NCBI GenBank assembly: GCA_965248365.1
Contig: CBDFJA010000004.1
Coordinates: 662,187-726,186 of the forward strand
DNA length: 64,000 nucleotides
Origin: Bryobacterales bacterium
GTDB taxonomy: Bacteria; Acidobacteriota; Terriglobia; Bryobacterales; UBA6623
Direction of reading: 5' to 3'
Shown here piece after piece: positions 1 to 61,886 of this stretch. The notes under the pieces were generated by a model. The model saw only the letters and a program-made list of their open reading frames with translations. It was not told the DNA's origin and searched no databases. A program made the position numbers and the translations under genes. How positions within the stretch are numbered: the stretch's first letter is position 1; each line of letters starts with the position of its first letter.

Positions 1-356
1 CGCTGCGGATCGCCATGTGCGGGGAGTTTCTCGGCCACGGCGTTTTCGCCTACCAAGCCGCCCCTGATTTCCGGCTGCTGCTGATGGGGTCGTTGGGCGT
101 CTCCGAGGAAACGGCAGCGACGGTTCTCCCCGTAATCGGCATCATGGATTTTGTAATCGCAGCCCTGGTTCTGGTCAATCCCATCCGAGCCGTCCTGCTG
201 TGGGGAGCCATCTGGGGGCTTCTCACGGGACTGGCGCGTCCTCTTTCCGGCAAGGAAATTTGGGATTTCCTGGAGCGCTTCCCAAATTGGGGCATCCCCT
301 TGGCGTTGCTGTTGGTTCGAGGGGTTCCCAGCAACTGGAGAGATTGGCTGCGCTAA
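1..356 (+). CDS. Hypothetical integral membrane protein, 5' end outside the window
   Basis: The reading frame of ORF 15..356 is open to the window edge. The translation is mostly hydrophobic helices (VLPVIGIMDFVIAALVLVNPIRAVLLWGAIWGLL). No family recognised. Confidence 0.45.
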   Translation, partial: LRIAMCGEFLGHGVFAYQAAPDFRLLLMGSLGVSEETAATVLPVIGIMDFVIAALVLVNPIRAVLLWGAIWGLLTGLARPLSGKEIWDFLERFPNWGIPLALLLVRGVPSNWRDWLR

Positions 357-443
357 CGCGCGGCCGGGCCCTCGTGCCTCAATCTCGTTGAAAACTTCGC
401 GGGTAGGCGTTCATGTGTGTCCCGCCCCGGCAGCCGGCAGCCG

Positions 444-622
444 GGGAGGCGAAGTGCGTGAGAGGCCCCTCAGTACAAGGCGCGCGCCGCCCAGCGCCCC
501 GTTTCTTGAACCATGCGGGCTCCTTCCTTGATCCCTACGTTGAACACGGCGAGCAAGCGCAACGCAGTAATGGCGGGCCTATTGCGTGCTTCGACCGTCA
601 GGTGGTGAGAAATGCGGGCTAG
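444..622 (+). repeat. R1 repeat, copy a (left terminus missing)
   Basis: Aligns to the other R1 copies from GGCGAAGTGCGTGAGAGGCCC through GTGGTGAGAAATGCGGG|CTAG (619-622). Confidence 0.85.
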
Positions 623-1227
623 GATCGCCAGCGGTTGACGAACCATTTCGTCCGCCGGACGTCACAAAGCCGCGGGTCCGGACCTTCTTCCCCGAGAAGA
701 ACCGCCAGCCGCTCCAGATGGCTCCAACCGCAAATGACCAGCGTATTGCGAGTCCGGCCGCCGTGCCGCCTCAGCTTGTCGTACATGAACCGCTCTCGGA
801 GCGCTTGCCAGCGGGCGACTTGCCCGGATGGATATCGGGCGTCCGGCTGGAGATAGTCGCCCGGAATCCCCAGCTTGCGTCTTTCTTGCTTGACGGCGTC
901 AATGGTGACGTATTCGCATCCGTGGGTGTCGGCGAGTTTTTGAGCGATGGTTTCCTCCCCGGCGCGGGTCTCCTCACCGATCAAATCGATCGCATGCTTG
1001 CCGATCAGCCCCTCCAGCATCCGCAAAAAATGATGCTTCTGACCGTGTTCGATCTCGGCGTCGCCAATACCGAGGCTCGCCCTCGGCTGCAAGCTGTGTT
1101 CGCAGCCTACCAAAACGATTGTGGCCGGCAAACTTTGATTGCCTCTCCAAAGTTCGCCGCCGCGCCCCCACCAAGTCGGCCAGGGAACACCCGCCCGCGC
1201 GGCCCCGAAACAACCGTCTGATCGCAT
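619..1227 (-). CDS. Conserved hypothetical protein
   Basis: 202-aa ORF with protein-like segments (IVLVGCEHS, AIDLIGEE, LVICGWSHLERL). Its TAG stop (619-621) lies in the CTAG flank of R1 copy a, as seen for three other genes. The overlapping plus-strand ORF 586..1221 is less protein-like. Confidence 0.45.
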   Translation of the reverse strand: MRSDGCFGAARAGVPWPTWWGRGGELWRGNQSLPATIVLVGCEHSLQPRASLGIGDAEIEHGQKHHFLRMLEGLIGKHAIDLIGEETRAGEETIAQKLADTHGCEYVTIDAVKQERRKLGIPGDYLQPDARYPSGQVARWQALRERFMYDKLRRHGGRTRNTLVICGWSHLERLAVLLGEEGPDPRLCDVRRTKWFVNRWRS

Positions 1228-1460
1228 CGGATCTCTTATCGGTCAAGACGCTGGAATCGCACCGCACAGCGGAACGTCTGGCGGCGCGCCGGTCTACACG
1301 ACGTTCGAGATCCCGGCGTTGGGGAAGAACTTCTTGCGATGAGGTATTGGGGCAGCGCCGTGTTCGCTGCCTCCGGCCAAGGACCGGTAAGATTGCCGGT
1401 CCCTGCTGCGCGCCGCGCCTCGCCGTAAGCGCCGAACGCGAAAACGCCTACCAGACTACT

Positions 1461-1540
1461 GATCCTAGCGACGTGGCGCACGCTTCCAGCGTGCTGTGTC
1501 GGGCTTTCGAGCCCGACATTTCCGAATCTATAATGAGTTC
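1461..1540 (+). repeat. R2 structured repeat, copy a (short form)
   Basis: GATCCTAGCGACGTGGCGCACGC..GCGTGC, followed by a perfect 9-bp hairpin TGTCGGGCT-TTCG-AGCCCGACA (1497-1518). Homologous to 28228-28370 and 49153-49363. Confidence 0.8.
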
Positions 1541-1557
1541 GTCTCCAGGACAGTTTG

Positions 1558-1757
1558 CTAGCTCGCTTTTCTCACCACGTGGCGAGGCGAAGTGCTTGAG
1601 AAGCCCGTCAGTACAAGGCGCGCGCCGCTCAGCGCCGCATTTCTTTAATAATGCGGGCGTACTTGAACCCTACGTTGAGCACGGTGAGCAAGCGCAACGC
1701 GGTAGTGGCGGGCTTATTGCGTGCTTCGACCGTCAGGTGGTGAGAAAAGCGAGCTAG
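1558..1757 (+). repeat. R1 repeat, copy b (full length, CTAG/CTAG flanks)
   Basis: CTAG|CTCGCTTTTCTCACCAC ... GTGGTGAGAAAAGCGAG|CTAG. The terminal inverted repeat is perfect and the element is one long imperfect palindrome. Confidence 0.9.
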
Positions 1758-2863
1758 TCGCTCGCGGACTCTTCGCCCCCAGGCGCGCCAACATTATCGG
1801 GCATCTCCGCGGTCAGCGCTTCCATGAACGCGACCAGGGCGTCGCGCTCCTTGCGAGTCAGATGGTCGAGCTCCTTGAGCTCCTTGTCGCGCCAGGGGTT
1901 GGAATTGCCGGCGCCGATGTAGAAGTCCACAACGTCCTTGAGCGTCGTCAGGCTGCCGTCGTGCATGTAAGGCGCTGATTGCGCAATGTTTCGTAGTGTG
2001 GGAGTTTTGAAGGCGCCCCGGTCCGCATCCTGCTTGGTCACTTCATAGCGGCCCAGGTCGCTCAGCTCGCCCTCGTCGTCGACGCCGACGCCCAGGTTGT
2101 GGAACTTGTTGTCGCTAAACAGCGCCGATTTCTCGTCGATACTGTGGCAAACGGCGCAGTTGCCTTTTTCCTCGTTGCGGAACACCTCCAAACCGAGTTT
2201 GGCGGACTCGCTCAACACCGACTCGTCGCCGCCGTACATGTAGCGGTCGAAGGGCGAATTCCCGCTGAGAACCGTTCGCTCAAAAGAAGCGATCGCCTTG
2301 ACGACCTTGTCGAAGGTTACCGCACCGGGCCCGTAGGCTTTTTCAAATCGCGCCACGTAGCCGGGGTCGCCCGAGAGATCGCCGACCACGCCTTCGACAG
2401 TATGCGCCATCTCAATGGGATTCTGCATCGGCCCGCCGGCCTGGTCTTCGAGGCTGGCGGCTCGCCCGTCCCAAAACTGCGTCGTGTAGTAGGCCGCATT
2501 GATCACGCTGGGCGCCTGCCGGCCGCCTTTCTTGCCGCCTACGCCGCTCGAAAACTGGTCCGGGTCGGCGAAGCCAGCGTCAGGCCGGTGGCAAGAGGCG
2601 CAGGCGATCGTGCCGTCCACCGACAGCAAGGGATCGTAGTAAAGTTGCCGCCCCAGAGCGATGGTTTCCGCCGTCGGCGGATTGTCTTCCGGGATGGGCA
2701 AGGGCGGCAACCCGAGCGGAACCGAGATTTCAACAGTCTCCCCAATCAACTTCGCGGCCGGGGGGGCGACTTCGGGTTCCGGCTGCGGCGCACACGAGAT
2801 GCCAAGAAGAACAATCGCGGATACGGACAGGGCAACCAATTTGAAACGAAGAGCAGCTGTCAC
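1754..2863 (-). CDS. Di-haem cytochrome c peroxidase (CCP/MauG family)
   Basis: 369 aa with a signal peptide, two CxxCH haem motifs (CASCH, CAVCH) and the FKTPTLRN motif typical of bacterial CCPs. Confidence 0.85.
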   Translation of the reverse strand: MTAALRFKLVALSVSAIVLLGISCAPQPEPEVAPPAAKLIGETVEISVPLGLPPLPIPEDNPPTAETIALGRQLYYDPLLSVDGTIACASCHRPDAGFADPDQFSSGVGGKKGGRQAPSVINAAYYTTQFWDGRAASLEDQAGGPMQNPIEMAHTVEGVVGDLSGDPGYVARFEKAYGPGAVTFDKVVKAIASFERTVLSGNSPFDRYMYGGDESVLSESAKLGLEVFRNEEKGNCAVCHSIDEKSALFSDNKFHNLGVGVDDEGELSDLGRYEVTKQDADRGAFKTPTLRNIAQSAPYMHDGSLTTLKDVVDFYIGAGNSNPWRDKELKELDHLTRKERDALVAFMEALTAEMPDNVGAPGGEESASD

Positions 2864-3161
2864 GGTTCACCTCCAGTTCGATGACGTTTCCGGGGACACT
2901 CCCTCCCCGGCCCGCTTCGTTTCGCCACCTGGCGAGAAACGCACGCTAGATCAGGAAGAAGTAAGCTTTTCATGGTTGTTACCTTTGAGGCCGTTTGTCA
3001 ACTGTTGGCGGCCCGCGGATCGAATTCTTGCCAGATTGGTGGGAAATCGGGCGAGATCGATCTCCCCGCGGCGGGCCGAGATCGCCTAGCTCGAAACATG
3101 TCCGGGAACCGTAGAGGGCGAAAAGCGGGTCGGATTCCCGTCGGCCGGGGCCCAGGGGGCG

Positions 3162-3434
3162 CTAACCCGTTTTTCTCACCACGTGGCGAGGCGAAGTGCG
3201 TGAGAGGCCCGTCAGTACAAGGCGCGCGCCGCTTGGCGCCGCATTTCTTGAATGATGCGGGCGTACTTTCGCGGGTGCAGCCTAGCCATTCGTATTGTGG
3301 CTCTAGCGAAAGAAGTAGCGACCCGCGTTCGACGCCCGACCGGGAAAGTACATTGAGCAAGGCGAGCACGCGCAACGCAGTAATGGCGGGCCTATGGCGT
3401 GCTTCGACCGTCGGGTGTGAGAAATGCGGGCTAA
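3162..3434 (+). repeat. R1 repeat, copy c (CTAA/CTAA flanks, expanded apex)
   Basis: CTAA|CCCGTTTTTCTCACCAC ... GTGTGAGAAATGCGGG|CTAA. 81 nt lie between the two apical GTAC motifs (3263-3266, 3348-3351), against 7 nt in other copies. Confidence 0.85.
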
Positions 3435-5064: not shown

Positions 5065-5598
5065 TCAGAAACCTTCGAGCACGGCGGAAACCAGGCTCCG
5101 CGCCAACCCGTCGCCCGTCCGCGCCAAGGCGGCCCGCCTCTCCTCCAAATAGGCTTCCGGATCGATCGTGACCTCGTAGCGCTCACGGTACTCGAAGGCC
5201 GGGTTCTGGTAGATCACCTTGGCCGTGTTGCGCTCGATCAACGCGACCTGGACCTGGGTCAGAGTGGCAACGCTGGTCGACCGGCCCGTCTTGGGGTCGA
5301 ACACGACGGGGAAAACGAAGAAGTTGAGTACCGTGCCCGTCAGGGTCGCGTCGGCCTCCGCCGGGTCGCTGACGATCCGATAGCGCGTGCGCGTCATGAA
5401 TTCCTGTGCGACCGCGCTGGTCACGTACTGCTCGATCTTGAATTCGGTCGTGTTGTTTCTAAACGTGGGAATGGCGATGGTGTGGACGGTATCGGGTACC
5501 GTGTCGGCGCGTCCCGCCAGGCGATAGCCGCAGGAGCCGGCGGAAAAAGCAACCGCCAACCAGACGACGGCGGAACCATACGCGGGGTTAACGCGCAT
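5065..5598 (-). CDS. lptE: LPS-assembly lipoprotein LptE-like
   Basis: 177 aa with a lipoprotein signal ending in a lipobox (AFSAGSC). Followed by IAIPTFRNNTTEFKIEQ. The lptE-holA gene order is conserved. Confidence 0.7.
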   Translation of the reverse strand: MRVNPAYGSAVVWLAVAFSAGSCGYRLAGRADTVPDTVHTIAIPTFRNNTTEFKIEQYVTSAVAQEFMTRTRYRIVSDPAEADATLTGTVLNFFVFPVVFDPKTGRSTSVATLTQVQVALIERNTAKVIYQNPAFEYRERYEVTIDPEAYLEERRAALARTGDGLARSLVSAVLEGF

Positions 5599-5660
5599 TT
5601 CTCACCACCTGACGCCTCTCGCGCACTTCGCCCCGCCAGCTGGTGAGAAAAGCGGGTTAG
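5588..5660 (-). repeat. R1 repeat, copy d (73-bp internally deleted mini-copy, TTAA/TTAG flanks)
   Basis: Retains both R1 termini (TTAA|CGCGCATTTCTCACCACCTGACG ... CTGGTGAGAAAAGCGGG|TTAG). It overlaps the lptE start codon. Confidence 0.8.
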
Positions 5661-7348: not shown

Positions 7349-7486
7349 CTAACCTGCTTTTCTGCTTTTGAAATAGGCCCTGTCTGTAACATGAATTACG
7401 TTACGGGGCATATTTTCATTTCGCGGGCCGGACGAAGTTCATCGTCACTCACCAGGTGGCGAGGCGAAGTACGTGAGAGGAGCGGG
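7349..7486 (+). repeat. R3 repeat, copy a (R1-like terminus, different core)
   Basis: CTAA|CCTGCTTTTCTGCTTTTGAAATAGGCCCTGTCTGTAACATGAATTACGTTACGGGG..., ending in an R1 left-arm-like CTCACCAGGTGGCGAGGCGAAGTACGTGAGAGG. Homologous to 61328-61520 and 30440-30490. Confidence 0.7.
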
Positions 7487-11386: not shown

Positions 11387-11613
11387 GTAGCGCGATACAC
11401 ATTTCTGAAACTCTTTGCTCGGTAGGTGCTCGATCAGTTGGGAGAAAACCGTACGGCCAAGGTTCATCCCTCATTGTGCCGCGTCCGGATGCTCCGTTCA
11501 GGCGACCATTTGCGGCCTCGGGATTTCAAATCGTTCCCGGGCAAAACAGGCCATAAGACATTGAGCGGTCGAGACTTACCGTCCGATGGCGCGACTTTCC
11601 CCGGACAGCACTG
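11387..11613 (-). mobile_element. Remnant (227 bp, IRL end plus the first 27 codons) of the 1329-bp IS
   Basis: Identical to the IRL-proximal part of copies B and C, ending ...CCGGACAGCACTG at 11613. The rest of the IS is absent. Confidence 0.9.
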
Positions 11614-11665
11614 ACAAGTACTATTGCACGTTCACTCGATTATCTTCCAAGGAGGCAAACCAGGC

Positions 11666-22965: not shown

Positions 22966-23099
22966 AATTGTTGAGGGGCCTCAGGGCCTCCGGTATGAGA
23001 TAACGGAGAAAACCAAAGGTCGAGGCGCCCAGAGACAGCGCAACCGGGAGCGGGATCAAGCCCGGTAAACTGATGACACGGGCGGCGCGCGGCAAGCTG

Positions 23100-23130
23100 C
23101 GACCGTCAGCTCGCGAGAAAAGCGGGCTAG
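23100..23130 (+). repeat. R1 repeat, copy f (right-terminal stub)
   Basis: GACCGTCAGCTCGCGAGAAAAGCGGG|CTAG, followed immediately by GAGG, so the junction reads CTAGGAGG. Confidence 0.6.
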
Positions 23131-26180: not shown

Positions 26181-26240
26181 CTAGCCTGCATTTCTCGCCA
26201 CCTTCGAGGCGAAGTTCGTGATAGGCCTCGCCGTTGAACC
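26181..26240 (+). repeat. R1 repeat, copy g (left arm only)
   Basis: CTAG|CCTGCATTTCTCGCCACCTTCGAGGCGAAGTTCGTGATAGGCC... Confidence 0.65.
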
Positions 26241-28130: not shown

Positions 28131-28227
28131 TTGTTTTCTTCGAATCCCGATTACAGTCGATCGTCGACGCCTGACATCGGCGAGAAACACCGGCCAACGC
28201 TAGGAGGCTGTCGCGGACAAGGGCTTT

Positions 28228-28370
28228 CTGATCGTCCGGGTAACGTGGCGCACGCATTCTTGCGTGCCGTGTCGCCATTCGTGGCGACATCGAGTCTCGG
28301 CGTGGCCCCGGCTTTCAGTGTGCTGTGTCGAGCTTTCGATCCCAACATTTCCGCATCTATTGTGAACTCA
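28228..28370 (+). repeat. R2 structured repeat, copy b
   Basis: CTGATCGTCCGGGTAACGTGGCGCACGCATTCTTGCGTGCC, then a perfect hairpin TGTCGCCA-TTCG-TGGCGACA (28270-28289), then ...GCTTTCAGTGTGCTGTGTCGAGCTTTCGATCCCAACATTTCC. Confidence 0.8.
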
Positions 28371-28383
28371 TTTCAAGGGCGGG

Positions 28384-29559
28384 CTAGGGCCGCTCCGCCG
28401 ATCCCGCGTAGGCCGGGGAGAGCTGGCGCAAGTGCCGGACGACCCTGGGAAGGGCGCCGAGCAGGGCGTCCACCTGCCGCACGTCATTTTGCCGGCCCAG
28501 GGAGAATCGGATGCTCGAGCGCGCTTGATCGGCCGACAGGCCTATGGCGATCAACACATGTGACGGCTCGACAGCGCCGCTGGAGCAAGCCGCGCCGCTC
28601 GAGACCGCCATGCCCTTGAGGTCGAGAGCGATGACCAGTGCCTCCCCTTCCAGACCATCGAAGCGGATGTTGGTCGTGTTTGGAACTCGATCCGTTCCGC
28701 GGCCGTTGACCCTGGCGCTTTCGATGCCCTCGAGGATGCCGGCTTCAAGCCGGTCACGCAGACCGGCGAGACGCTCTGCTTCAGCGGGCATTTTCTTTCG
28801 AGCGAGCGCCGCCGCCTCGCCGAGACCGACGATGCCGGGCACATTCTGCGTGCCGGCGCGATACCCTCGTTCGTGACGCCCGCCGTGTTGAATCCGCTCG
28901 AGTTGGCTCCCCTTCCTCACAAAGAGCGCTCCGGCGCCCTTCGGCCCGTAAAACTTGTGGGCGCTGAGACTAAACAGATCAACCCCAAGCGTGTCCACTT
29001 CGGTGGGGATTTTCCCCGTGCTTTGCACGCCGTCAGAGTGAAACACGACGCCGGCTTCGCGCGCGATTTCCGAAATTGGGGCGACGGGCTGCACGGTTCC
29101 CAATTCGTTGTTGGCGTGCATGATCGAAATCAGCTCGGTGTGTGGCCGCAGGGCAGCCCTCACATCGTCGGGAGAGACGACGCCGTCCGAGCCGACCCCG
29201 ACGTGGGAGACCTCGATCCCCTCCTTCTCGAGCTGTTGGCAAGTATGCAGGACCGCGGGATGCTCGATCGAGCTCGTGATGACGTGCTTCCGGGAGCGGG
29301 TCGAGGCTCGCACGGTCCCGAGAATGGCTAGGTTATCGGCCTCGGTTCCGCCGCTCGTAAAGACGATTTCGGCGGGGCTGCAACACAACAACTCGGCGAC
29401 TTGGCGGCGAGCGTGCTCGACGCGCGCCTTGGCGTCCTGTCCAAAACCGTGAATGCTCGAGGCGTTGCCGTAGGATCCTTCCAGGCACAAGACGATCGCG
29501 TCTCGCACCTCGGGTGCGACAGGCGTCGTGGCGTTATGGTCGAAGTAGTAGCGCTGCAT
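28384..29559 (-). CDS. Cysteine desulfurase (NifS/IscS class)
   Basis: 391 aa. MQRYYFDHNATTP start, SAHKFYGPKG PLP-lysine motif, SSGAACSSG active-site loop. Confidence 0.9.
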   Translation of the reverse strand: MQRYYFDHNATTPVAPEVRDAIVLCLEGSYGNASSIHGFGQDAKARVEHARRQVAELLCCSPAEIVFTSGGTEADNLAILGTVRASTRSRKHVITSSIEHPAVLHTCQQLEKEGIEVSHVGVGSDGVVSPDDVRAALRPHTELISIMHANNELGTVQPVAPISEIAREAGVVFHSDGVQSTGKIPTEVDTLGVDLFSLSAHKFYGPKGAGALFVRKGSQLERIQHGGRHERGYRAGTQNVPGIVGLGEAAALARKKMPAEAERLAGLRDRLEAGILEGIESARVNGRGTDRVPNTTNIRFDGLEGEALVIALDLKGMAVSSGAACSSGAVEPSHVLIAIGLSADQARSSIRFSLGRQNDVRQVDALLGALPRVVRHLRQLSPAYAGSAERP

Positions 29560-30603: not shown

Positions 30604-31029
30604 AAGAGCCTCAATCCCTTGAAGAAAGGTTCGATGTCGGGGGCCAAAAAACCTGCTTGATGGAAGGACTGCCTCGCGACGGCAGGTGCCTGGGAAGTCT
30701 TCAGAAAGCCGGGCGACGATTGCGGCCGAGAGATGCTCAGGAGTCACGAGTGACTTGACGGCTGATGCGCTGCCGCGAGTTAGGCGTGCGGCTGTAGAGA
30801 GCGAGAGCGGCGCCGCCCTGCGACCTGACCCCGACGGCGGGATTCGGGCGCGGCCCCCCCCCCGCTCCTAAGTCAAGACGGCCGACTCGAAACAAGACCG
30901 TAGTAGTGCTTGAACGACGCTTCTTGCCGGAGATGCCTAGTGCCCGAGCCGAAGCTCCAGCCGCAAGCGGCTGACCGGGATCGAAAATCCGAAGCCGCGC
31001 CAAAACGGGCGGAAACCGGCGGTCTTCCC

Positions 31030-31884
31030 TTGACCGTCACCGCGTATCGCCTCAAGCCGGTGACGATGAAAATCGTTCCCGCTTCGGAAGAGCGCCGCTG
31101 GATGGACTGGCACTCGAACGGTGCCTACCGCTGCTTGCCTTTGCGCATCGCCAACCAGGCCGGCTGGTTTCTTCTCAACGACTGTGACTTTGAAGTGCTT
31201 TGGACGGGGAAACCCCACGTTGACAGTCTGAAAATCAAATACCCTCGAAACCAAAAGTCTCGGTTTGTTCTGAATATCTTCGGCCACGGTATTCTCACAT
31301 GGCATATTCCTTATCTCTTCCGCACGCCTCCGGGATACAATCTGTTCGTTCGCGGTCCGACCAATTGGATTAAGGACGGCGCGTGCCCCCTCGATGCTAT
31401 TGTGGAAACCGACTGGGCAGTAGCAACGTTCACGATGAATTGGAAGCTGACGCGGCCACTTTGCAGGGTGAAGTTTCGCAAGGACGAGCCGATTTGCATG
31501 ATCCTTCCTCAGCGCCGCGGTGAACTGGAAGCCTTTCGGCCGGAAGTTCGCAATATCGAATCCGAACCTGAGCTCGACAAAGGGCACCAAGAGTGGTCCG
31601 ACGCACGGCGCCAACTTGTTCGGGAGAAGAAGGTTCTCGCGGAGGAAACTACGCGGGGCCTGCATAAAGCCAAGCCGGCTCCGTGGCAGCCGGAGTACTT
31701 CCTAGGGACGGCGCCCGGCGGCGCGAAGGCCCTCGAGCACCAGATCAAGCTAGAGGTTCGCGCGTTCGACGAGATGGAGGCTCCGCGCGAGGCTGTTGCG
31801 GTGCCGGAGGACGGTCAGCCATCCCGAGAGCGCGGTTCCGTACTCGATCGTGTGAAACGGCTTTGGCGCAGGGAGAACAGCTAA
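31030..31884 (+). CDS. Hypothetical protein resembling the DUF6065 family
   Basis: TAYRL...IVPASEERRWMDW...AYRCLPLRIANQAGWFL is the N-terminal pattern I associate with DUF6065. The start is uncertain: TTG at 31030, ATG at 31066, or the ORF start at 30910. Confidence 0.55.
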   Translation: MTVTAYRLKPVTMKIVPASEERRWMDWHSNGAYRCLPLRIANQAGWFLLNDCDFEVLWTGKPHVDSLKIKYPRNQKSRFVLNIFGHGILTWHIPYLFRTPPGYNLFVRGPTNWIKDGACPLDAIVETDWAVATFTMNWKLTRPLCRVKFRKDEPICMILPQRRGELEAFRPEVRNIESEPELDKGHQEWSDARRQLVREKKVLAEETTRGLHKAKPAPWQPEYFLGTAPGGAKALEHQIKLEVRAFDEMEAPREAVAVPEDGQPSRERGSVLDRVKRLWRRENS

Positions 31885-32092
31885 GCCCGCACTTCTCACC
31901 AGCGACCGGCAGCCGTGGAGCAAAAACCGGCCGGCGGGGATGCCCGGGCACGGCATGCCCTGCCCCAGGCGCGATTCATAGCGCCGGCTTGCAGACAGAC
32001 TGTACGCTGGACGATATACACAAACTGTTGCCGCGAGTCCTGGCCATCGGGTCTTCCCGATCGCCGTGACAGTGGAAAGAAAAGCAGGCTAG
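31881..32092 (-). repeat. R1-related repeat, copy l (CTAA/CTAG flanks, divergent interior)
   Basis: CTAA|GCCCGCACTTCTCACCAGCGACCGG ... GTGACAGTGGAAAGAAAAGCAGG|CTAG. The interior contains an R5-like near-palindrome GGGCACGGCATGCCCTGCCC. Confidence 0.65.
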
Positions 32093-44981: not shown

Positions 44982-46310
44982 CAGTGCTGTCCGGAGAAAG
45001 TCGCGCCATCGGACGGTAAGTCTCGACCGTTCAATGTCTTATGGCCTGTTTTGCCCGGGAACGATTTGAAATCCCGAGGCCGCAAATGGTCGCCTGAACG
45101 GAGCATCCGGACGCGGCACAATGAGGGATGAACCTTGGCCGTACGGTTTTCTCCCAACTGATCGAGCACCTACCGAGCAAAGAGTTTCAGAAATGTGTAT
45201 CGCGCTACCGCGGCGATTCCTATCTGAAAAGTTTCTCCTGCTGGGATCAGTTTCTTGCGATGGCATTCGCCCAGCTGACCTATCGGGCAAGCCTCCGCGA
45301 CATCGAGACGTGCCTGCGTTCGATGCACGGCAAACTCTACCACATGGGATTCCGCGGCAGGGTAGCGCGCTCGACACTGGCCGATGCGAACGAGTCGCGC
45401 GACTGGCGGATCTACGCGGACTTCGCGCAGGTCTTGATTGGCATGGCACGGCCGTTATATGCCCACGACCCGATCGGTGTGGACTTGGACCAGACTCTGT
45501 ACGCTCTCGACTCGACAACAATCGACCTCTGCCTGTCGCTGTTTCCGTGGGCGAGATTCCGCAAGCAAAAGGCCGCCGTGAAGATGCCCACGCTGCTGGA
45601 TCTGCACGGCAATATTCCCACGTTCATCCGCATTACTGGAGGCAAAGTGCACGACATCAACATCCTCGACGAGATCGGCCCGGAGGCCGGCGCGTTCTAC
45701 GTCATGGATCGGGCCTACGTCGATTTCGAACGCCTCTTCGTGTTCACTCTCTGCTCGTCGTTCTTCGTCGTGCGAACCAAGAAGAACATCTTGCTCCAAC
45801 GGCGCTACTCGCATCCCGTCGACAAATCCACGGGCTTGCGCTCGGATCAGACCGTCATACTGGCTGCCATCGAATCGGCCCAAGCCTATCCCGACCCGTT
45901 GCGGAGGGTCAGTTACTTCGACGCCCGGACGAACAAGCGGCTGAAGTTTCTGACCAACAACTTCGCGCTCCCGGCGCTGACCATCGCCCACATCTACAAG
46001 TCGCGTTGGCAGATTGAGTTGTTCTTCAAGTGGATCAAGCAACATCTGCGAATCAACTCGTTTTACGGCACCAGCGAGAACGCCGTCAAGACGCATATCT
46101 GGATCGCTGTCTCGATTTACGTGCTCATCGCCATCGTCCGGAAACGGCTCGGGCTGGAAGCGAGTCTTTACCAGATTCTACAGATTCTCAGCGTTACGCA
46201 ATTCGAAAAAATGCCCCTTTTACAGGCACTCCAGCCATCCGACTCCCCAAACGAATCCCCCTATGACCCCAACCAATTGATTCTATTCGACTTTTAACCG
46301 GACAGCAGTG
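44982..46310 (+). mobile_element. 1329-bp IS (IS4/IS5-superfamily), copy A
   Basis: Ends CAGTGCTGTCCGG... and ...CCGGACAGCAGTG. Nearly identical to copies B and C. Confidence 0.9.
45128..46297 (+). CDS. DDE transposase of the 1329-bp IS (copy A)
   Basis: 389 aa. The N-terminus MNLGRTVFSQLIEHLPSKEFQKCVSRYRGD..KSFSCWDQFLAMAFAQLT is typical of DUF4372-type IS4-family transposases. FYVMDRAYVDF and SRWQIELFFKWIKQHL motifs. Confidence 0.9.
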   Translation: MNLGRTVFSQLIEHLPSKEFQKCVSRYRGDSYLKSFSCWDQFLAMAFAQLTYRASLRDIETCLRSMHGKLYHMGFRGRVARSTLADANESRDWRIYADFAQVLIGMARPLYAHDPIGVDLDQTLYALDSTTIDLCLSLFPWARFRKQKAAVKMPTLLDLHGNIPTFIRITGGKVHDINILDEIGPEAGAFYVMDRAYVDFERLFVFTLCSSFFVVRTKKNILLQRRYSHPVDKSTGLRSDQTVILAAIESAQAYPDPLRRVSYFDARTNKRLKFLTNNFALPALTIAHIYKSRWQIELFFKWIKQHLRINSFYGTSENAVKTHIWIAVSIYVLIAIVRKRLGLEASLYQILQILSVTQFEKMPLLQALQPSDSPNESPYDPNQLILFDF

Positions 46311-46876
46311 CTCATGGGTATCGTTCCGCAGCAAGACGCGACTCGGTTCCACCTCGGAATCACGAATGAGACGGCGAAACGCCTCCGGTTCAATCCTGAC
46401 TAGTCTCAGCGATCCACTGCTACGAGTCTCGTGTCCTCTGCTCATCAAACCCCTCATACGGGCGCTTAACTCTTGATCTTCTTGGAGGACAAGGAGATTG
46501 ATCATGTAATCACGATTCAGTTCATCCAGGCGTCTTGCCTTGCGATGAATATCCTCTAGGGTCTGGGCTGGATAGACGCGTTTATTTGAGTAGCTGAGAA
46601 ACTCGACGGATAGGGCGGGTATCTCGAAAGAGTGGCAAAAGACAATGTTCCGATACTCGGTGTTGTCCCTTACGAAATAGGCGATCTCCGCCGGCTCAGA
46701 GATTGGGTTTGGAAAGTATTCGCGGTATCTGCTGTGATTCGCCTCAATATAGAAAGCCCCCAGTAGGACAGCTAAGAGCGCTGCTAGGGATACGCCAGAC
46801 GCCTTGCCCGCGCCCCGAGCCAGCCCGGGGAGAGGTATGGTTGCGAAGACCTTGCCCCCTAAAACGAGTCCAAGTT
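46311..46876 (-). pseudogene. Fragment of a membrane-anchored hypothetical protein, truncated at both ends (IS copy A and the IS3 remnant)
   Basis: ...VSLAALLAVLLGAFYIEANHSRYREYFPNP...LVRIEPEAFRRLIRDSEVEPSRVLLRNDTH, then runs into the IS end. GC is lower than the surroundings. Confidence 0.4.
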
Positions 46877-47037: not shown

Positions 47038-48366
47038 CACTGCTGTCCGGTTAAAAGTCGAATAGAATCAATTGGTTGGGGTCATAGGGGGATTCGTTTG
47101 GGGAGTCGGATGGCTGGAGTGCCTGTAAAAGGGGCATTTTTTCGAATTGCGTAACGCTGAGAATCTGTAGAATCTGGTAAAGACTCGCTTCCAGCCCGAG
47201 CCGTTTCCGGACGATGGCGATGAGCACGTAAATCGAGACAGCGATCCAGATCTGCGTCTTGACGGCGTTCTCGCTGGTGCCGTAAAACGAGTTGATTCGC
47301 AGATGTTGCTTGATCCACTTGAAGAACAACTCAATCTGCCAACGCGACTTGTAGATGTGGGCGATGGTCAGCGCCGGGAGCGCGAAGTTGTTGGTCAGAA
47401 ACTTCAGCCGCTTGTTCGTCCGGGCGTCGAAGTAACTGACCCTCCGCAACGGGTCGGGATAGGCTTGGGCCGATTCGATGGCAGCCAGTATGACGGTCTG
47501 ATCCGAGCGCAAGCCCGTGGATTTGTCGACGGGATGCGAGTAGCGCCGTTGGAGCAAGATGTTCTTCTTGGTTCGCACGACGAAGAACGACGAGCAGAGA
47601 GTGAACACGAAGAGGCGTTCGAAATCGACGTAGGCCCGATCCATGACGTAGAACGCGCCGGCCTCCGGGCCGATCTCGTCGAGGATGTTGATGTCGTGCA
47701 CTTTGCCTCCAGTAATGCGGATGAACGTGGGAATATTGCCGTGCAGATCCAGCAGCGTGGGCATCTTCACGGCGGCCTTTTGCTTGCGGAATCTCGCCCA
47801 CGGAAACAGCGACAGGCAGAGGTCGATTGTTGTCGAGTCGAGAGCGTACAGAGTCTGGTCCAAGTCCACACCGATCGGGTCGTGGGCATATAACGGCCGT
47901 GCCATGCCAATCAAGACCTGCGCGAAGTCCGCGTAGATCCGCCAGTCGCGCGACTCGTTCGCATCGGCCAGTGTCGAGCGCGCTACCCTGCCGCGGAATC
48001 CCATGTGGTAGAGTTTGCCGTGCATCGAACGCAGGCACGTCTCGATGTCGCGGAGGCTTGCCCGATAGGTCAGCTGGGCGAATGCCATCGCAAGAAACTG
48101 ATCCCAGCAGGAGAAACTTTTCAGATAGGAATCGCCGCGGTAGCGCGATACACATTTCTGAAACTCTTTGCTCGGTAGGTGCTCGATCAGTTGGGAGAAA
48201 ACCGTACGGCCAAGGTTCATCCCTCATTGTGCCGCGTCCGGATGCTCCGTTCAGGCGACCATTTGCGGCCTCGGGATTTCAAATCGTTCCCGGGCAAAAC
48301 AGGCCATAAGACATTGAGCGGTCGAGACTTACCGTCCGATGGCGCGACTTTCCCCGGACAGCACTG
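47038..48366 (-). mobile_element. 1329-bp IS, copy B
   Basis: CACTGCTGTCCGG at 47038 and CCGGACAGCACTG ending at 48366. Inverted relative to copy A. Confidence 0.9.
47051..48220 (-). CDS. DDE transposase of the 1329-bp IS (copy B)
   Basis: 389 aa, with 1 aa difference from copy A (H/Q). Confidence 0.9.
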   Translation of the reverse strand: MNLGRTVFSQLIEHLPSKEFQKCVSRYRGDSYLKSFSCWDQFLAMAFAQLTYRASLRDIETCLRSMHGKLYHMGFRGRVARSTLADANESRDWRIYADFAQVLIGMARPLYAHDPIGVDLDQTLYALDSTTIDLCLSLFPWARFRKQKAAVKMPTLLDLHGNIPTFIRITGGKVHDINILDEIGPEAGAFYVMDRAYVDFERLFVFTLCSSFFVVRTKKNILLQRRYSHPVDKSTGLRSDQTVILAAIESAQAYPDPLRRVSYFDARTNKRLKFLTNNFALPALTIAHIYKSRWQIELFFKWIKQHLRINSFYGTSENAVKTQIWIAVSIYVLIAIVRKRLGLEASLYQILQILSVTQFEKMPLLQALQPSDSPNESPYDPNQLILFDF

Positions 48367-48980
48367 ATGCAAGCTAGCAAGCCGCCGACCGCCATCAGCA
48401 TCATCAAATAGGGAGCCGCTACCGGGTCGAACACGCCGAAGAGTTCACTGGCCGTCTTCGAACCCACCCAGGCGCCCAGGGAACTGCCCACGCCGACCAA
48501 AGGAAACAGCCGCTTGCCCTGCTCTTCGGTAAAAACGTCGTTCGCGAAGGCCCAAAACTGCGCGATCACCAGAACATTAAAAATGCCGATCCACAGAAAG
48601 AAGGCCACGCCGACCCGTACGCCCGAGACGCCCAAGACAGCGAAGATTCCGAGATGAGAGATGAAAGAAAGCGTCACCCAAGTAATCAGGCGAGTGCGGT
48701 TGACCTTGCCCGCAAACGCTCCGTAAGCAGGGACCACGGCCAGCAGCAGAAGAGCCTGGCCCGCCGCGGCATAGCTCTTGATCTCAGCGCCGCCCTCGCT
48801 GAGGATGAGGGCTTCCCGGACCGTCTTGAGCAGATAGTAAGAGGCGAGCAGCAGGAATACATTGGCGGCGAGTAACAGCGCGGTGGCGCCTTCGCCGGGT
48901 TTGACCTGGCTGAAAACCGAAAGGGCCTTGTCCAGAAGCCCTTTCTTCCCCTCCGCGATGGGCTTAACAACCTCTTGCAT
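48367..48980 (-). pseudogene. 5' fragment of a TLC/AAA-family (ATP:ADP antiporter-like) transporter, truncated by IS copy B
   Basis: MQEVVKPIAEGKKGLLDKALSVFSQVKPGEGATALLLAANVFLLLASYYLLKTVREALILSEGGAEIKSYAAAGQALLL... Only about 200 aa (6 helices) remain before the IS end. Confidence 0.5.
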
Positions 48981-49152
48981 GGTCGAGCCCCAGGGCCTTG
49001 GCGGCCGAGACAAGCAACCAGTGTAACAGCCCGCCGTGGCCTCCTTCCGAGATGCCGATGCCCTTCCAGCACGAGGCGGGTCGACGTCGGATCAAGCGCC
49101 GCGACGGACGCCCGGCCGCCGAGCTCTAGCCGTCTGTTTCAGACAAAACCGT

Positions 49153-49363
49153 CTGATCCTCCAGGCGACGTGGCGCGCGCATTCTTGCGTGCCGTGTCGC
49201 CATTCTTGGCGACATTTCTCATTGCTGCGCCGGCCCTTCTGCCGGGCATTGGGATGCCGGCAAGCATGCCGGCACAGCACGCTGAAAGCGTGCGCCACGT
49301 CGTTGTCAAGCCGATCAGATCCTGTCGCTTTCGAGCCCGACATTCTCAAATCCGTGGTGAACC
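49153..49363 (+). repeat. R2 structured repeat, copy c (long form with inverted duplication)
   Basis: CTGATCC..GACGTGGCGCGCGCATTCTTGCGTGCC, the hairpin TGTCGCCA-TTCT-TGGCGACA, ... GCACGCTGAAAGCGTGCGCCACGTC..GATCAG, ending TGTCGCTTTCGAGCCCGACATTC. Confidence 0.8.
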
Positions 49364-49386
49364 CGTTTCGAGAACAGGCCACCCGC

Positions 49387-49689
49387 CTAGTCCAGGTCGA
49401 TGTCGCGGGGGAACTGTTTTTGAGGACCTTCCGAGCGCGCCTTCTTGAGCAGTCCCTCGAAGCGCTTATCGAGCACCTTGCCGTGTTGGCGTTCGGCCTG
49501 CACTTGCTCGCGAAACCTCTGATCACGACTACCTTCTTCCGACTTGAGTTGCCGGACCGCCTTTTGAAGATCGAGCGGGGCTTCCTTCGGCTTCGGCGCT
49601 TGATGAGATAGGATGGCCTCGGTCTCCGCGTCGACTTCGAGCTTGGCGCCGCAGCAAGGGCACTCGATCTCGAAAACCCCGTCGTCCAT
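49387..49689 (-). CDS. Small zinc-ribbon protein (hypothetical)
   Basis: 100 aa with an N-terminal CPCCGAKLEV motif followed by a charged, helical tail. Confidence 0.5.
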   Translation of the reverse strand: MDDGVFEIECPCCGAKLEVDAETEAILSHQAPKPKEAPLDLQKAVRQLKSEEGSRDQRFREQVQAERQHGKVLDKRFEGLLKKARSEGPQKQFPRDIDLD

Positions 49690-49814: not shown

Positions 49815-49888
49815 TGGGAGGTAGTGTAACGGTAACACGACAGATTCTGGATCTGTTTATCGGGGTTCGAGTCCCTGCCTCCCAGCCA
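49815..49888 (+). tRNA. tRNA-Gln (anticodon CUG)
   Basis: Manual cloverleaf: acceptor TGGGAGG/CCTCCCA, D arm GTGT-AACGGTA-ACAC, anticodon arm ACAGA-TTCTGGA-TCTGT, T arm CGGGG-TTCGAGT-CCCTG, G73, encoded CCA. 74 nt. Confidence 0.9.
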
Positions 49889-51130: not shown

Positions 51131-52459
51131 CACTGCTGTCCGGTTAAAAGTCGAATAGAATCAATTGGTTGGGGTCATAGGGGGATTCGTTTGGGGAGTC
51201 GGATGGCTGGAGTGCCTGTAAAAGGGGCATTTTTTCGAATTGCGTAACGCTGAGAATCTGTAGAATCTGGTAAAGACTCGCTTCCAGCCCGAGCCGTTTC
51301 CGGACGATGGCGATGAGCACGTAAATCGAGACAGCGATCCGGATCTGCGTCTTGACGGCGTTCTCGCTGGTGCCGTAAAACGAGTTGATTCGCAGATGTT
51401 GCTTGATCCACTTGAAGAACAACTCAATCTGCCAACGCGACTTGTAGATGTGGGCGATGGTCAGCGCCGGGAGCGCGAAGTTGTTGGTCAGAAACTTCAG
51501 CCGCTTGTTCGTCCGGGCGTCGAAGTAACTGACCCTCCGCAACGGGTCGGGATAGGCTTGGGCCGATTCGATGGCAGCCAGTATGACGGTCTGATCCGAG
51601 CGCAAGCCCGTGGATTTGTCGACGGGATGCGAGTAGCGCCGTTGGAGCAAGATGTTCTTCTTGGTTCGCACGACGAAGAACGACGAGCAGAGAGTGAACA
51701 CGAAGAGGCGTTCGAAATCGACGTAGGCCCGATCCATGACGTAGAACGCGCCGGCCTCCGGGCCGATCTCGTCGAGGATGTTGATGTCGTGCACTTTGCC
51801 TCCAGTAATGCGGATGAACGTGGGAATATTGCCGTGCAGATCCAGCAGCGTGTGCATCTTCACGGCGGCCTTTTGCTTGCGGAATCTCGCCCACGGAAAC
51901 AGCGACAGGCAGAGGTCGATTGTTGTCGAGTCGAGAGCGTACAGAGTCTGGTCCAAGTCCACACCGATCGGGTCGTGGGCATATAACGGCCGTGCCATGC
52001 CAATCAAGACCTGCGCGAAGTCCGCGTAGATCCGCCAGTCGCGCGACTCGTTCGCATCGGCCAGTGTCGAGCGCGCTACCCTGCCGCGGAATCCCATGTG
52101 GTAGAGTTTGCCGTGCATCGAACGCAGGCACGTCTCGATGTCGCGGAGGCTTGCCCGATAGGTCAGCTGGGCGAATGCCATCGCAAGAAACTGATCCCAG
52201 CAGGAGAAACTTTTCAGATAGGAATCGCCGCGGTAGCGCGATACACATTTCTGAAACTCTTTGCTCGGTAGGTGCTCGATCAGTTGGGAGAAAACCGTAC
52301 GGCCAAGGTTCATCCCTCATTGTGCCGCGTCCGGATGCTCCGTTCAGGCGACCATTTGCGGCCTCGGGATTTCAAATCGTTCCCGGGCAAAACAGGCCAT
52401 AAGACATTGAGCGGTCGAGACTTACCGTCCGATGGCGCGACTTTCCCCGGACAGCACTG
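51131..52459 (-). mobile_element. 1329-bp IS, copy C
   Basis: CACTGCTGTCCGG at 51131 and CCGGACAGCACTG ending at 52459. Same orientation as copy B. Confidence 0.9.
51144..52313 (-). CDS. DDE transposase of the 1329-bp IS (copy C)
   Basis: 389 aa, with 2 aa differences from copy B (P/H, W/R). Confidence 0.9.
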   Translation of the reverse strand: MNLGRTVFSQLIEHLPSKEFQKCVSRYRGDSYLKSFSCWDQFLAMAFAQLTYRASLRDIETCLRSMHGKLYHMGFRGRVARSTLADANESRDWRIYADFAQVLIGMARPLYAHDPIGVDLDQTLYALDSTTIDLCLSLFPWARFRKQKAAVKMHTLLDLHGNIPTFIRITGGKVHDINILDEIGPEAGAFYVMDRAYVDFERLFVFTLCSSFFVVRTKKNILLQRRYSHPVDKSTGLRSDQTVILAAIESAQAYPDPLRRVSYFDARTNKRLKFLTNNFALPALTIAHIYKSRWQIELFFKWIKQHLRINSFYGTSENAVKTQIRIAVSIYVLIAIVRKRLGLEASLYQILQILSVTQFEKMPLLQALQPSDSPNESPYDPNQLILFDF

Positions 52460-52557
52460 TACTTGAACAGTACGTTGAGCACGGCGAGCAAGCGCAACAC
52501 AGTAATGGCGGGGCTATTGCGTGCTTCGACCGTCAGGTGGTGAGAAATGCGGGCTAG
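52460..52557 (+). repeat. R1 repeat, copy h (right half only, cut at the apex by IS copy C)
   Basis: TACTTGAACAGTACGTTGAGCACGGCGAGCAAGCGCAAC...GTGGTGAGAAATGCGGG|CTAG. Confidence 0.85.
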
Positions 52558-54186: not shown

Positions 54187-54371
54187 CTAGCCCGCTTTTC
54201 TCACCACGTGGCGAGGCGAAGTGCGTGAGAGGCCCGTCAGTACAAGGCGCGCGCCGCTCGGCGCGCGGAGGCGTACTCGAACAGTACGTTGAGCACGGCG
54301 AGCAAGCGCAACGCCGTAATGGCGGGCCTATTGCGTGCTTCGACCGTCAGGTGGTGAGAAATGCGGGCTAG
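54187..54371 (+). repeat. R1 repeat, copy i (intact, CTAG/CTAG flanks)
   Basis: CTAG|CCCGCTTTTCTCACCAC...GTGGTGAGAAATGCGGG|CTAG. 185 bp. Confidence 0.9.
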
Positions 54372-54518
54372 GCGGAACGGCCTCGAACCTCTTGCTTGAC
54401 CAACTACGCCTCGGCGCGCAGGGCCGTTGCCGATCGGCGCTTCCCATCCGCCCGGGTGCTCGAATTCGTTTTGCAGTGCGGCGACTTTCTGCCTAGAATA
54501 AAGTGGGCGGTGAAACGA

Positions 54519-54809
54519 ATGGCAGAGAGAATGGTTCAATGCGTAAAGTTCGGCAAACAGCTTCGCGGTCTCGATGAGACGCCTTTTGAAGGGGAGTTGG
54601 GCCAGAGGATCTATGACAACGTGTCAAAAGACGCTTGGGCATTGTGGGCCGAGCACCTGAAGATGGTCATCAACGAGTACCGGCTCAACCCGGCGACGAT
54701 GGAGGCGCAGGAACTCATCATGAAGCAGATGGAAGAGTTCTTCTTCGGCGAGGGATCGCAGCTCCCCCCGGGATATGTCCCGCCCACGCCCGGGCAGACG
54801 AAACAGTAA
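54519..54809 (+). CDS. yggX: Fe(2+)-trafficking / oxidative-damage protection protein YggX
   Basis: MVQCVKFGKQLRGLDETPFEGELGQRIYDNVSKDAWALWAEHLKMVINEYRL is the YggX signature. The start is at 54519 or 54531. Confidence 0.8.
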   Translation: MAERMVQCVKFGKQLRGLDETPFEGELGQRIYDNVSKDAWALWAEHLKMVINEYRLNPATMEAQELIMKQMEEFFFGEGSQLPPGYVPPTPGQTKQ

Positions 54810-60390: not shown

Positions 60391-60720
60391 ATGGCTGAAG
60401 ACCATAGTGATACAAGCTTGGCCTGGTTCCTGGCGGGAGCCGCTCTGGGAGCCGCGGGGGCCTTGTTGCTGGCCCCACAGTCGGGAAGCGAAACAAGAGA
60501 GGTGCTACGTCGTAGGACGCTCGAAGGCCGCGAGAGGCTGAACAAGTCGGGAAGAGAAGCCTTCGAAAAAGGCCGCGAGCTTTACGACCGTGGTAAAGAG
60601 GTGGCGGAGGACGCGGCTGAGCTGTTCGAGCAGGGGCGAAAAGTGGTTAGCGAGAAGTTTTCTCCCGTAGGCTCGGGGTCGCAGGACGGCGAACCGGAAA
60701 AGCAGGAGTCAGCCACCTAA
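60391..60720 (+). CDS. YtxH-domain protein
   Basis: LAWFLAGAALGAAGALLLAPQSGSETREVLRR followed by a charged helical tail. 109 aa. Confidence 0.75.
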   Translation: MAEDHSDTSLAWFLAGAALGAAGALLLAPQSGSETREVLRRRTLEGRERLNKSGREAFEKGRELYDRGKEVAEDAAELFEQGRKVVSEKFSPVGSGSQDGEPEKQESAT

Positions 60721-60916
60721 CCTGCGTTTCTCACCAGCTGACGGTCGAAGCACGCCATAGGCCCGCCATGACTGCGTTGCGCTTGCTCACCGTGCTCAAC
60801 GTACTGTTCAAGTACACCCGCATTATTCAAGAAATGCGGCGCCGAGCGGCGCGCGCCTTGTACTGAGGGGCCTCTCACGCACTTCGTCTCGCCACGTGGT
60901 GAGAAACGCAGGCTAA
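60717..60916 (-). repeat. R1 repeat, copy j (full length, CTAA/CTAA flanks)
   Basis: CTAA|CCTGCGTTTCTCACCAGCTGACGGTCGAAGCACGCC ... GCCACGTGGTGAGAAACGCAGG|CTAA. Confidence 0.9.
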
Positions 60917-61327
60917 CTTCTTTTACGGGCCGCCAACCCTCTTTTCTCACGACGGCTGCGGTGAACAAGGCTAAAAGGCGCGGTGGCCAGGGAGCGCGGC
61001 AACAGGTTATCTACATCACCCGGCGTACACTATCTCGCCAAGCGGGCGCGATTGATCGCCGAGTTGTCCGAATTAGCCGTCTGCTAACCGAGGCGTGGTT
61101 TCTACAGGAAAAATTTGCCCCAGGAGGCTTCGGCAGGGCAGGCCCTCGAGTAGAAACCTGCTGCTGTCCGACTAATCACGGCCCCGCATCCCTGATGGCG
61201 GGGCTTTGGTCCGCTGAACGGCCAACCTGAAACTCAAATTGGGCGGGGCCCGGCCCTTCTGCCGGCGTTGACCGATAAACTCAATCGTTCCAACAAGTTT
61301 CCCGCCTGAGGGTCCGGCCGGTACCCA

Positions 61328-61520
61328 CTAGCCCGCATTTCTCGCCACCTGACGGTCGAAGTGCGCCATAGGCCCGCCATTACGTCGTTACGTTTGTCCA
61401 CCGCGCTCAACCGGTGGTGAGTCACCATGAACTTCGTCCACCCCGCAGCACGAAAATATGCCCCATAACGTAATTCATGTTACAGACACGGCCTATTTTC
61501 AAAACAGAAAAGCGGGTTAG
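61328..61520 (-). repeat. R1/R3 hybrid element (CTAG/TTAG flanks)
   Basis: The left part equals the R1 right arm in reverse (CTAG|CCCGCATTTCTCGCCACCTGACGGTCGAAGTGCGCCATAGGCCCGCC...). The right part equals the R3 core (...CCCCATAACGTAATTCATGTTACAGACACGGCCTATTTTCAAAACAGAAAAGCGGG|TTAG). Confidence 0.75.
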
Positions 61521-61536
61521 TTGCGAGAAATGCGAG

Positions 61537-61609
61537 AAGCCGGGAAGGTGTGTTTCAGGGGTCTTTTGGTTGAGGTTTGTCTCGCTTTGGTGGGGTTGCC
61601 TCCCCGGCT
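61537..61609 (+). repeat. 73-nt direct repeat, unit a (self-complementary ends)
   Basis: GAAGCCGGGAAGG...CAGGGGTCTTTTGGTTGAGGTTTGTCTCGCTTTGGTGGGGTTGCCTCCCCGGCT. Matches 61811-61886. Confidence 0.7.
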
Positions 61610-61810: not shown

Positions 61811-61886
61811 GAAGCCGGGGAGGTTTTCGCTTCAGGGGTCTTTGGTTGAGGTTAGTCTCGCTTTGGTGGGAGTTGCCCCCCCGGCC
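61811..61886 (+). repeat. 73-nt direct repeat, unit b
   Basis: GAAGCCGGGGAGG...CAGGGGTCTTTGGTTGAGGTTAGTCTCGCTTTGGTGGGAGTTGCCCCCCCGGCC. Confidence 0.7.

Follow-up and report, generated by a model that had tools for sequence, protein, structure and literature searches.

The stretch of Bryobacterales DNA analysed here (the window, 64 kb in length) carries chromosomal housekeeping genes, among them those for serine hydroxymethyltransferase (SHMT), a transketolase-like subunit, UvrA, and cytochrome c peroxidase; the source-named homologues of the peroxidase come from Acidobacteria, Bryobacteraceae or Solibacter. An IS4-family insertion sequence (IS) of 1330 bp is present in three identical copies (44982-46311, 47038-48367, and 51131-52460) and as a 228-bp fragment (11387-11614). 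Its ends read CACTGCTGTCCGG, its 389-aa transposase (DUF4372 plus DDE_Tnp_1) scores 243 bits with the NF033592 model, and the whole element is 99% identical to a copy in a Bryobacterales MAG (L056). A tRNA gene (49815-49885; Rfam RF00005, 64.9 bits) lies between two of the IS copies, where it adjoins a member of a small repeat family. The members of this family (28200-28393, 49125-49390, and 1460-1557) are ~100-260 nt long, and two of the three have CTAG at their borders; one end, when read on the reverse strand, is CCCGCCCTTGAAA, which is IS1380-like.

A different repeat family, R1, is the subject of this analysis. Its intact copy at 54187-54371 consists of CTAG, a 177-nt core that starts with CCCGCTTTTCTCACCAC and finishes with GTGGTGAGAAATGCGGG, and a second CTAG. 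As the original prediction stated, the core ends in a 17-nt terminal inverted repeat (TIR) with one mismatch; across the family the TIRs have 0-3 mismatches. The copy, described earlier as one long imperfect palindrome, folds as a single, near-perfect 177-nt hairpin with an RNA MFE of -128.2 kcal/mol (z = -11.8). The sole open reading frame (ORF) that overlaps it, 54237-54539 on the minus strand, extends beyond the element. When up to 3 mismatches are allowed, the 17-nt terminus CCCGCWTTTCTCACCAC matches 20 times within the 64 kb, while ~0.5 matches are expected. Dinucleotide-preserving shuffles of the window give 0.48 +/- 0.76 matches, and 20 is reached by none of 100 shuffles; the terminus is thus enriched 40-fold, in agreement with the proposal that these are members of a dense family of TIR elements. 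The R1-related elements of the window, recovered either with an nhmmer profile of family members or by direct reading of the sequence, are collected in Table 1.

Table 1. R1 and R1-related elements in the window
Element	Position	Strand	Structure and flanks
Intact R1 MITE	54187-54371	+	Core 54191-54367 (177 nt), CTAG/CTAG; intergenic, after the serine hydroxymethyltransferase gene
Intact R1 MITE	1558-1757	+	192-nt core, CTAG/CTAG
R1 MITE	3162-3434	+	265-nt core, CTAA/CTAA; ~88 nt added at hairpin apex
Intact R1 MITE	60717-60916	-	192-nt core, CTAA/CTAA; opposite orientation
R1 without left TIR	444-622	+	Model positions 21-177; right TIR and CTAG
Right half of R1	52460-52557	+	Left half removed or displaced by the IS4-family IS at 51131-52460
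Mini derivative	5588-5660		65-nt core: two TIRs separated by a short spacer; TTAA/TTAG
Same TIRs, unrelated interior	31881-32092		CTAA(G)/CTAG; extra G between CTAA and TIR
R1/R3 chimera	61328-61535	-	R1 arm plus R3 arm ending ...CAGAAAAGCGGG, then TTAG; left flank CTAG
R3-type terminus plus R1 arm fragment	7349-7486	+	CTAA, then CCTGCTTTTCTGC...; R1 arm at 7447-7484
Left-end fragment	26181-26240	+	CTAG, then CCTGCATTTCTCGCCAC and ~30 nt of arm
Right-end fragment	23093-23130	+	...GCGAGAAAAGCGGG, then CTAG
Solo TIR-like 17-mer	60937-60953	+	2 mismatches; adjoins the 60717-60916 copy

In total the window holds about 12 R1 copies, whether full, truncated or chimeric, with core sizes of 65-265 nt among the related elements. 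This corresponds to about one copy per 5 kb, where one per 5-6 kb had been proposed. All of the copies listed previously were recovered, with two corrections of detail: the second chimera ends at 61535 rather than at 61520, and the element at 31881 contains the additional G. Pairwise identity among the window copies is 89-96%, so the expansion of the family is not very recent. At 52460 the apex of an R1 element is interrupted by one copy of the IS4-family IS, and a 41-nt direct repeat (61565-61605 and 61841-61881, 276 nt apart and 85% identical) lies just downstream of the chimera at 61328-61535. In the 192-nt variants of R1 the apex bears a 25-nt micro-palindrome, CCCGCATTATTCAAGAAATGCGG (window 1640-1665, 3245-3270, and 60805-60830), that is missing from the 177-nt variants. 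At both ends it repeats the opening 8-9 nt of the TIR, and it may represent a mini-element nested in R1 or an internal site for transposase.

An exact-match scan for the 17-mer, with one genome per species, returns at least 110 stretches, every one of them from a MAG. Among the matches listed, the hosts are Acidobacteriota, Planctomycetota, Gamma-, Alpha-, and Deltaproteobacteria, Verrucomicrobiota, Chloroflexota, Armatimonadota, and Actinomycetota. Together, the window and these genome loci yield at least 66 short elements (132-295 bp) with paired TIRs. With the TIRs trimmed off, the 66 sort into roughly a dozen groups according to host genome; one Planctomycetota MAG, for instance, has a family of 173 nt, and a gammaproteobacterial MAG has one of 159 nt. 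R1 proper (at least 45 bits) is present, among the matches listed, only in the window and in Bryobacterales MAGs, which also contain the closest copies among those matches, and it comprises two subfamilies. The interior of R1 is most clearly seen in MAGs of Bryobacterales; the other phyla have different small elements with the same ends. The window and the Bryobacterales MAG loci hold 24 R1-type copies, and since at least 10 other Bryobacterales MAGs have such copies, the family is not confined to this region, as it would be if it had arisen by local duplication. Neither the element nor 8 kb of its flank matches a plasmid in PLSDB, and viral contigs contain two solo ends only.

The tetranucleotide YTAR is found at 104 of the 132 flanks of the 66 short elements (CTAG 73, TTAG 18, CTAA 7, and TTAA 6), compared with a background of 0.32% per position. 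The same tetranucleotide is present on both sides of 31 of the 66 elements. When such an identical pair is not palindromic, it is always a direct repeat (TTAG/TTAG in four cases, CTAA/CTAA in two, and CTGG/CTGG in one), and inverted-type pairs number zero. Consequently, YTAR is a duplication of the target rather than a part of the TIR. The same conclusion follows from a filled and an empty version of one site. Locus L051 reads ...CACTTG CTAG (R1) CTAG CCCGGCG..., while L033 reads ...CACTTG CTAG CCCGGCG...; over a longer interval, L051 is ...TTCCACTTG-CTAG-(R1)-CTAG-CCCGGCGATGCC... and L033 is ...TTCCACTT-GCTAG-CCCGGCGATGCC.... This pair, the one perfectly clean empty site obtained, has the single YTAR that had been predicted for sites without the element. 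Judged by its translation, the L051 flank at the R1 insertion looks like the 5' portion of a group II intron. Another pair suggested by BLAST, L060 and L022, was dropped since the alignment is not clean.

Relatives of the window also differ in the presence of R1. Loci L111 and L113 (85-89% nt identity) are without the copy downstream of the peroxidase gene (1558-1757), and at the 619-622 junction, occupied in the window by CTAG and the 444-622 copy, both contain just one CTAG and no element. The repeat at 1460-1557, which belongs to the small family near the tRNA gene and adjoins R1, is also missing from L111 and L113. In the syntenic loci L114 and L115 (78% nt identity, with shorter, diverged intergenic regions) nothing aligns to the 3162-3434 copy, and L114 likewise has no counterpart that aligns to the 5588-5660 copy. 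None of these junctions at the window's own loci is base-perfect, because the 1460-1557 repeat is co-inserted, because the far side is rearranged (444), or because the relatives, at 78% identity, are too diverged. In the closest relative found (L111/L112, aligned with window 1-3100), the peroxidase is 95% identical in amino acids and 86% in nucleotides, and the 21 kb around its gene contain 0-1 R1 copies plus a fragment. The high density of R1 in the window is therefore specific to its lineage. R1 is thus small and non-coding, with TIRs, a target duplication checked against an empty site, dispersed copies, and differences in presence or absence, and these are the features of a MITE, as had been proposed.

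The position of many R1 copies with respect to genes follows from the choice of target. In 21 of the 66 insertions (window and loci listed), the duplicated YTAR contains the stop codon that ends a frame of 120 codons or more; of all 2519 YTAR sites, 14.4% do so (p = 3e-4). Within the window, the right CTAG of the 1558-1757 copy provides the TAG stop (1754-1756) of the cytochrome c peroxidase gene (1754-2863, minus), and the CTAG of the 444-622 copy is the stop codon of an ORF at 619-1227 (minus). Similarly, the left CTAA of the 60717-60916 copy is the TAA stop of an ORF at 60391-60720, and the CTAA of the 31881-32092 element contains the stop codon of a DUF6065 gene (30910-31884). In this G+C-rich genome YTAR is rare, and about a seventh of the YTAR sites are the stop codons of genes. 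Insertions inside genes would be lost; an insertion on a stop codon would regenerate the stop and leave the gene intact, since the target tetranucleotide holds TAG or TAA, which the duplication restores. Because YTAR is both rare and often a stop codon, many of the surviving insertions would lie exactly on stop codons. Target choice together with purifying selection is the simplest reading of this placement.

The hairpin itself is probably maintained. In an alignment of 15 Bryobacterales copies, the consensus hairpin has 65 pairs and 96.3% of the cells are paired. Compensatory change is seen in 12 of the 65 stem pairs, compared with 5.5 +/- 1.3 in shuffles (none of 500 reaches 12) and 0-3 in slid controls. 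Two-sided differences between the R1 subfamilies, at 27/153, 28/152, 43/137, 44/136, and 67/113, all still give standard pairs. The covariation counts are inflated by the shared descent of the two subfamilies; thus, the evidence that compensatory changes actively maintain the long hairpin is good but not overwhelming. The two strands are not equivalent. Seven G·U columns are conserved in at least 10 of the 15 copies, all of them on the strand that is "+" at 54187, and conserved A·C columns number zero. This strand folds better than its complement in all 24 copies, mostly by ~20 kcal/mol (range 6-31), with 6-15 G·U pairs (mostly 7-9) compared with 1-9 (mostly 2-3) on the complement; for a single copy, an asymmetry of 8 versus 3 is not significant alone. 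The conservation of the seven G·U columns across the subfamilies is suggestive and, together with the better-folding strand, points to the folding of one particular strand. The hairpin might help the two ends of a very short DNA to synapse, or it might act as a hairpin of one single strand.

These properties could also mean that R1 has a function of its own beyond that of a MITE, namely, as a strand-specific hairpin built around a central stem-loop, either in RNA (a stabiliser or processing site in the 3'-UTR) or as a structure in ssDNA. The paired and covarying stem and the asymmetric G·U positions speak for such a hairpin. So does the central module, which is common to several phyla, has a covarying stem, and is not found in the IS copies with the same ends (see below), and so does the fact that a third of the copies immediately follow a stop codon. 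However, the orientation of R1 relative to the upstream gene is random, with 8 forward and 7 reverse among all orientable copies; thus, an RNA role for one co-transcribed strand is not supported. A bias of 6 to 1 among the stop-codon copies, which would favour such a role, comes from a motif-based count of too few cases and is gone when all orientable copies are counted. Rfam, at the gathering and E-value thresholds, gives no match in the element (mir-248, at E = 0.11, is meaningless), and a scan for promoter or terminator consensus sequences finds none inside it. In addition, the shared descent that inflates the covariation weakens this argument as well, and the siting at stop codons is explained by target choice and purifying selection. 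A function of this kind is therefore unlikely, although several of the observations are in keeping with it.

The transposase that mobilises R1 can be approached through larger elements with the same ends. Three pairs of TIRs lie more than 1 kb apart in the genome loci listed (L009, L109, and L076). In L009, positions 1518-3265 are a 1748-bp IS, bounded by CTAG on each side, whose left end is CCCGCATTTCTCACCAC and whose right end is GCGGTGAGAAATGCGGG (0 and 1 TIR mismatches). Its one ORF encodes a 475-aa IS1380 transposase, which scores 539 bits with Pfam DDE_Tnp_1_4 and 389 bits with NCBIfam transpos_IS1380 (NF033539; cut-off 180), and ~20 bits each with the IS4 and IS701 models. In L109 the two TIRs enclose a decayed IS1380. 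The third element (L076:60-2084, in a Planctomycetota MAG) is bounded by TIRs and interrupted by a group II intron with a 459-aa reverse transcriptase (RVT_1 plus GIIM). Two further IS1380 elements, in L094 (87% aa identity) and L053 (57%), are each present with one end, and its TIR is exact. Thus, all of the full-length transposase-encoding elements found between these termini belong to the IS1380 family. A metagenome scan with the L009 protein adds 80 loci at 61-88% aa identity, nearly all with CCCG(C/G)ATTTCTCAC... at both ends. For 49 of these IS copies, 1623-1806 bp in length, both ends are present; YTAR lies on both sides in 46 of the 49, and the flanks are identical in 31, with nine non-palindromic direct pairs and two of the inverted type. 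On one contig (L162), an IS of this IS1380 clade and a related MITE are 1.5 kb apart.

R1 is therefore a non-coding MITE that is very probably mobilised by an IS1380-family transposase and that shares its ends with an autonomous IS family, whose cognate members are present in other genomes and in metagenomes. A DDE transposase of this family, encoded outside the window, would recognise the 17-bp ends CCCGCWTTTCTCACCAC and insert the element at YTAR, mostly CTAG, with duplication of the 4 bp. As the original prediction held, the window encodes no cognate enzyme: tblastn detects neither an IS1380 transposase nor a remnant of one in the 64 kb, and the IS4-family IS has ends unrelated to those of R1. 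The Bryobacterales MAGs yielded no IS1380 element whose ends have the 17-nt TIR exactly, and the IS1380-family copies in Bryobacterales MAGs (L049 and L074) encode transposases 29% identical to that of L009. A cognate IS1380 transposase is presumably present in the window's own genome, and the R1 copies may still be mobile. Searches of the more than 80 IS copies for the R1 interior or R1-like subterminal sequence give no match beyond the TIR; R1 is thus not a simple internal-deletion derivative of any IS sampled. Many MITEs do have an interior that arose from their IS by deletion, but this is not a defining feature of mobilisation in trans.

The parentage originally proposed for R1, mobilisation by an IS5-type DDE transposase, had been deduced from the 4-bp YTAR targets. 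A 4-bp YTAR duplication is typical of IS5, and in R1 this duplication is real. However, it is common to IS5 and to the IS1380 clade, as the 46 of 49 IS1380 copies demonstrate, and consequently does not discriminate between them. The long elements with these ends that encode a transposase all have one of the IS1380 family (the L009 protein scores 389 bits with NF033539), no IS5-family model is among the NCBIfam matches listed for the L009 protein, and no IS5-type gene lies between such ends among the at least 110 genome loci and the 80 metagenome loci. An IS5 origin is thus very improbable, and the assignment has to be changed to IS1380. The remaining alternative, that R1 consists of REP/BIME-like repeats that include the CTAG and are spread by a RAYT (an IS200/IS605-type Y1 enzyme), would fit a palindromic, mainly intergenic sequence with a conserved bordering tetranucleotide, but it can be discarded almost entirely, since it is contradicted by the one CTAG of the empty site and the two of the filled site, by non-palindromic flanks that are direct rather than inverted, by a length of ~180 nt that greatly exceeds the 20-40 nt of REPs, and by the occurrence of the same ends on IS1380 elements.

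Although the arms between the TIR and the centre have diverged, the MITEs of several hosts share, in addition to the TIRs, a central block, AGGC-RTAS-(TTGACA/TCGACA/TTGAACA)-STAY-GTYGAGCAC. The block is found in MITEs of Bryobacterales, another Acidobacteriota MAG, five gammaproteobacterial MAGs, and one deltaproteobacterial MAG. It forms a stem-loop of roughly 30 nt whose 4-bp stem covaries (GTAC/GTAC in nine cases, ATAG/CTAT in six, GTAG/CTAC in one, and ATAC/GTAT in one; ATCG/CGAT occurs in one MAG). A profile of the block detects 49 sites in the window and the genome loci listed, and on the 80 IS loci it detects none, save the MITE on L162. It is conceivable, if on balance doubtful, that a superfamily of IS1380-mobilised MITEs in Acidobacteriota and in Gamma- and Deltaproteobacteria carries this stem-loop, which has conserved G·U pairs and covarying stems and folds on one strand only, as a functional part of its own that is specific to the MITEs. 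Our guess is that the module might be a bending or accessory site that helps the two ends of a ~177-bp DNA to synapse or, alternatively, the nucleation point of a single-strand hairpin used in transposition; it could instead be used by the host. If the module does have such a function, the MITEs that bear it would be more than passive deletion derivatives. Missing as it is from the parent ISs, the module raises the question of what short MITEs need in order to transpose.

A second lineage of IS1380 may be connected with the R3 ends seen in two of the elements of Table 1. The R3 terminus (window 7349-7400 and 61480-61535) reads CTAA followed by CCYGCTTTTCTG(Y)TTTGAAA(A)TAGGCC. It resembles the left end of an element in L074, a Bryobacterales MAG locus with a second IS1380 lineage, where positions 2555-2580 read CTAA followed by GCCCGCATTTTCAATTTG and the end begins CCCGCATTTTCAATTT. 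It is the transposase of this lineage that is 29% identical to the L009 enzyme.

The members of the IS1380 family, which include IS1380, IS1247, ISEcp1, and ISPme1, have ends that start CC(C), a short target duplication of fixed length, and, within 1.6-1.8 kb, a single DDE_Tnp_1_4 transposase gene. With the IS1380 clade described here R1 shares the exact TIR and the YTAR duplication; it differs from the ISs in its length (~180 bp), in having no transposase, and in an interior unrelated to those of the sampled ISs. The clade here duplicates 4 bp at YTAR, whereas IS1247 is listed with a 5-bp DR (PMC3281130). With the IS5 group, R1 has in common the 4-bp YTAR duplication, but neither its ends nor the transposase associated with them is of the IS5 type.

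R1 resembles ERIC, Correia/NEMIS, and Nezha, small, non-coding hairpin MITEs that have TIRs and target duplications, are mostly intergenic, and presumably depend on a related IS for mobilisation in trans. R1 differs from these, and from MITEPye1, in its partner (IS1380), in its target (CTAG/YTAR), and in a central module conserved across phyla. MITEPye1, like R1 small, non-coding, and mostly intergenic, with TIRs, a target duplication, and a long stem-loop, is a hairpin-forming MITE inferred to be mobilised in trans by IS1182 (PMC11578231). Full-text literature searches that combine IS1380 with MITE find, among the hits examined, no description of an IS1380-derived MITE, and those that combine Acidobacteria with MITE find none of R1. 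R1 belongs to an ordinary type of element and does not represent a new kind of system; what changes is its parentage. The correction, from IS5 to IS1380, matters to the census or annotation of a repeat that is very abundant in Bryobacterales-type genomes.

The ends of IS1380 start with CC, and the family is a prokaryotic relative of piggyBac, which has a TTAA target and CCC ends. When compared by ends and target alone, R1 resembles piggyBac in its CCC ends and in a 4-bp, palindrome-like target with a central TA (TTAA in piggyBac; YTAR, which includes TTAA, in R1), and differs from it in being prokaryotic and in preferring CTAG over TTAA. IS1380 transposases serve as an outgroup for piggyBac (PMC10813416). 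With its strict 4-bp YTAR target, mostly CTAG, and a 17-bp end that is conserved across many phyla, the IS1380 clade that includes the probable partner of R1 thus parallels piggyBac.
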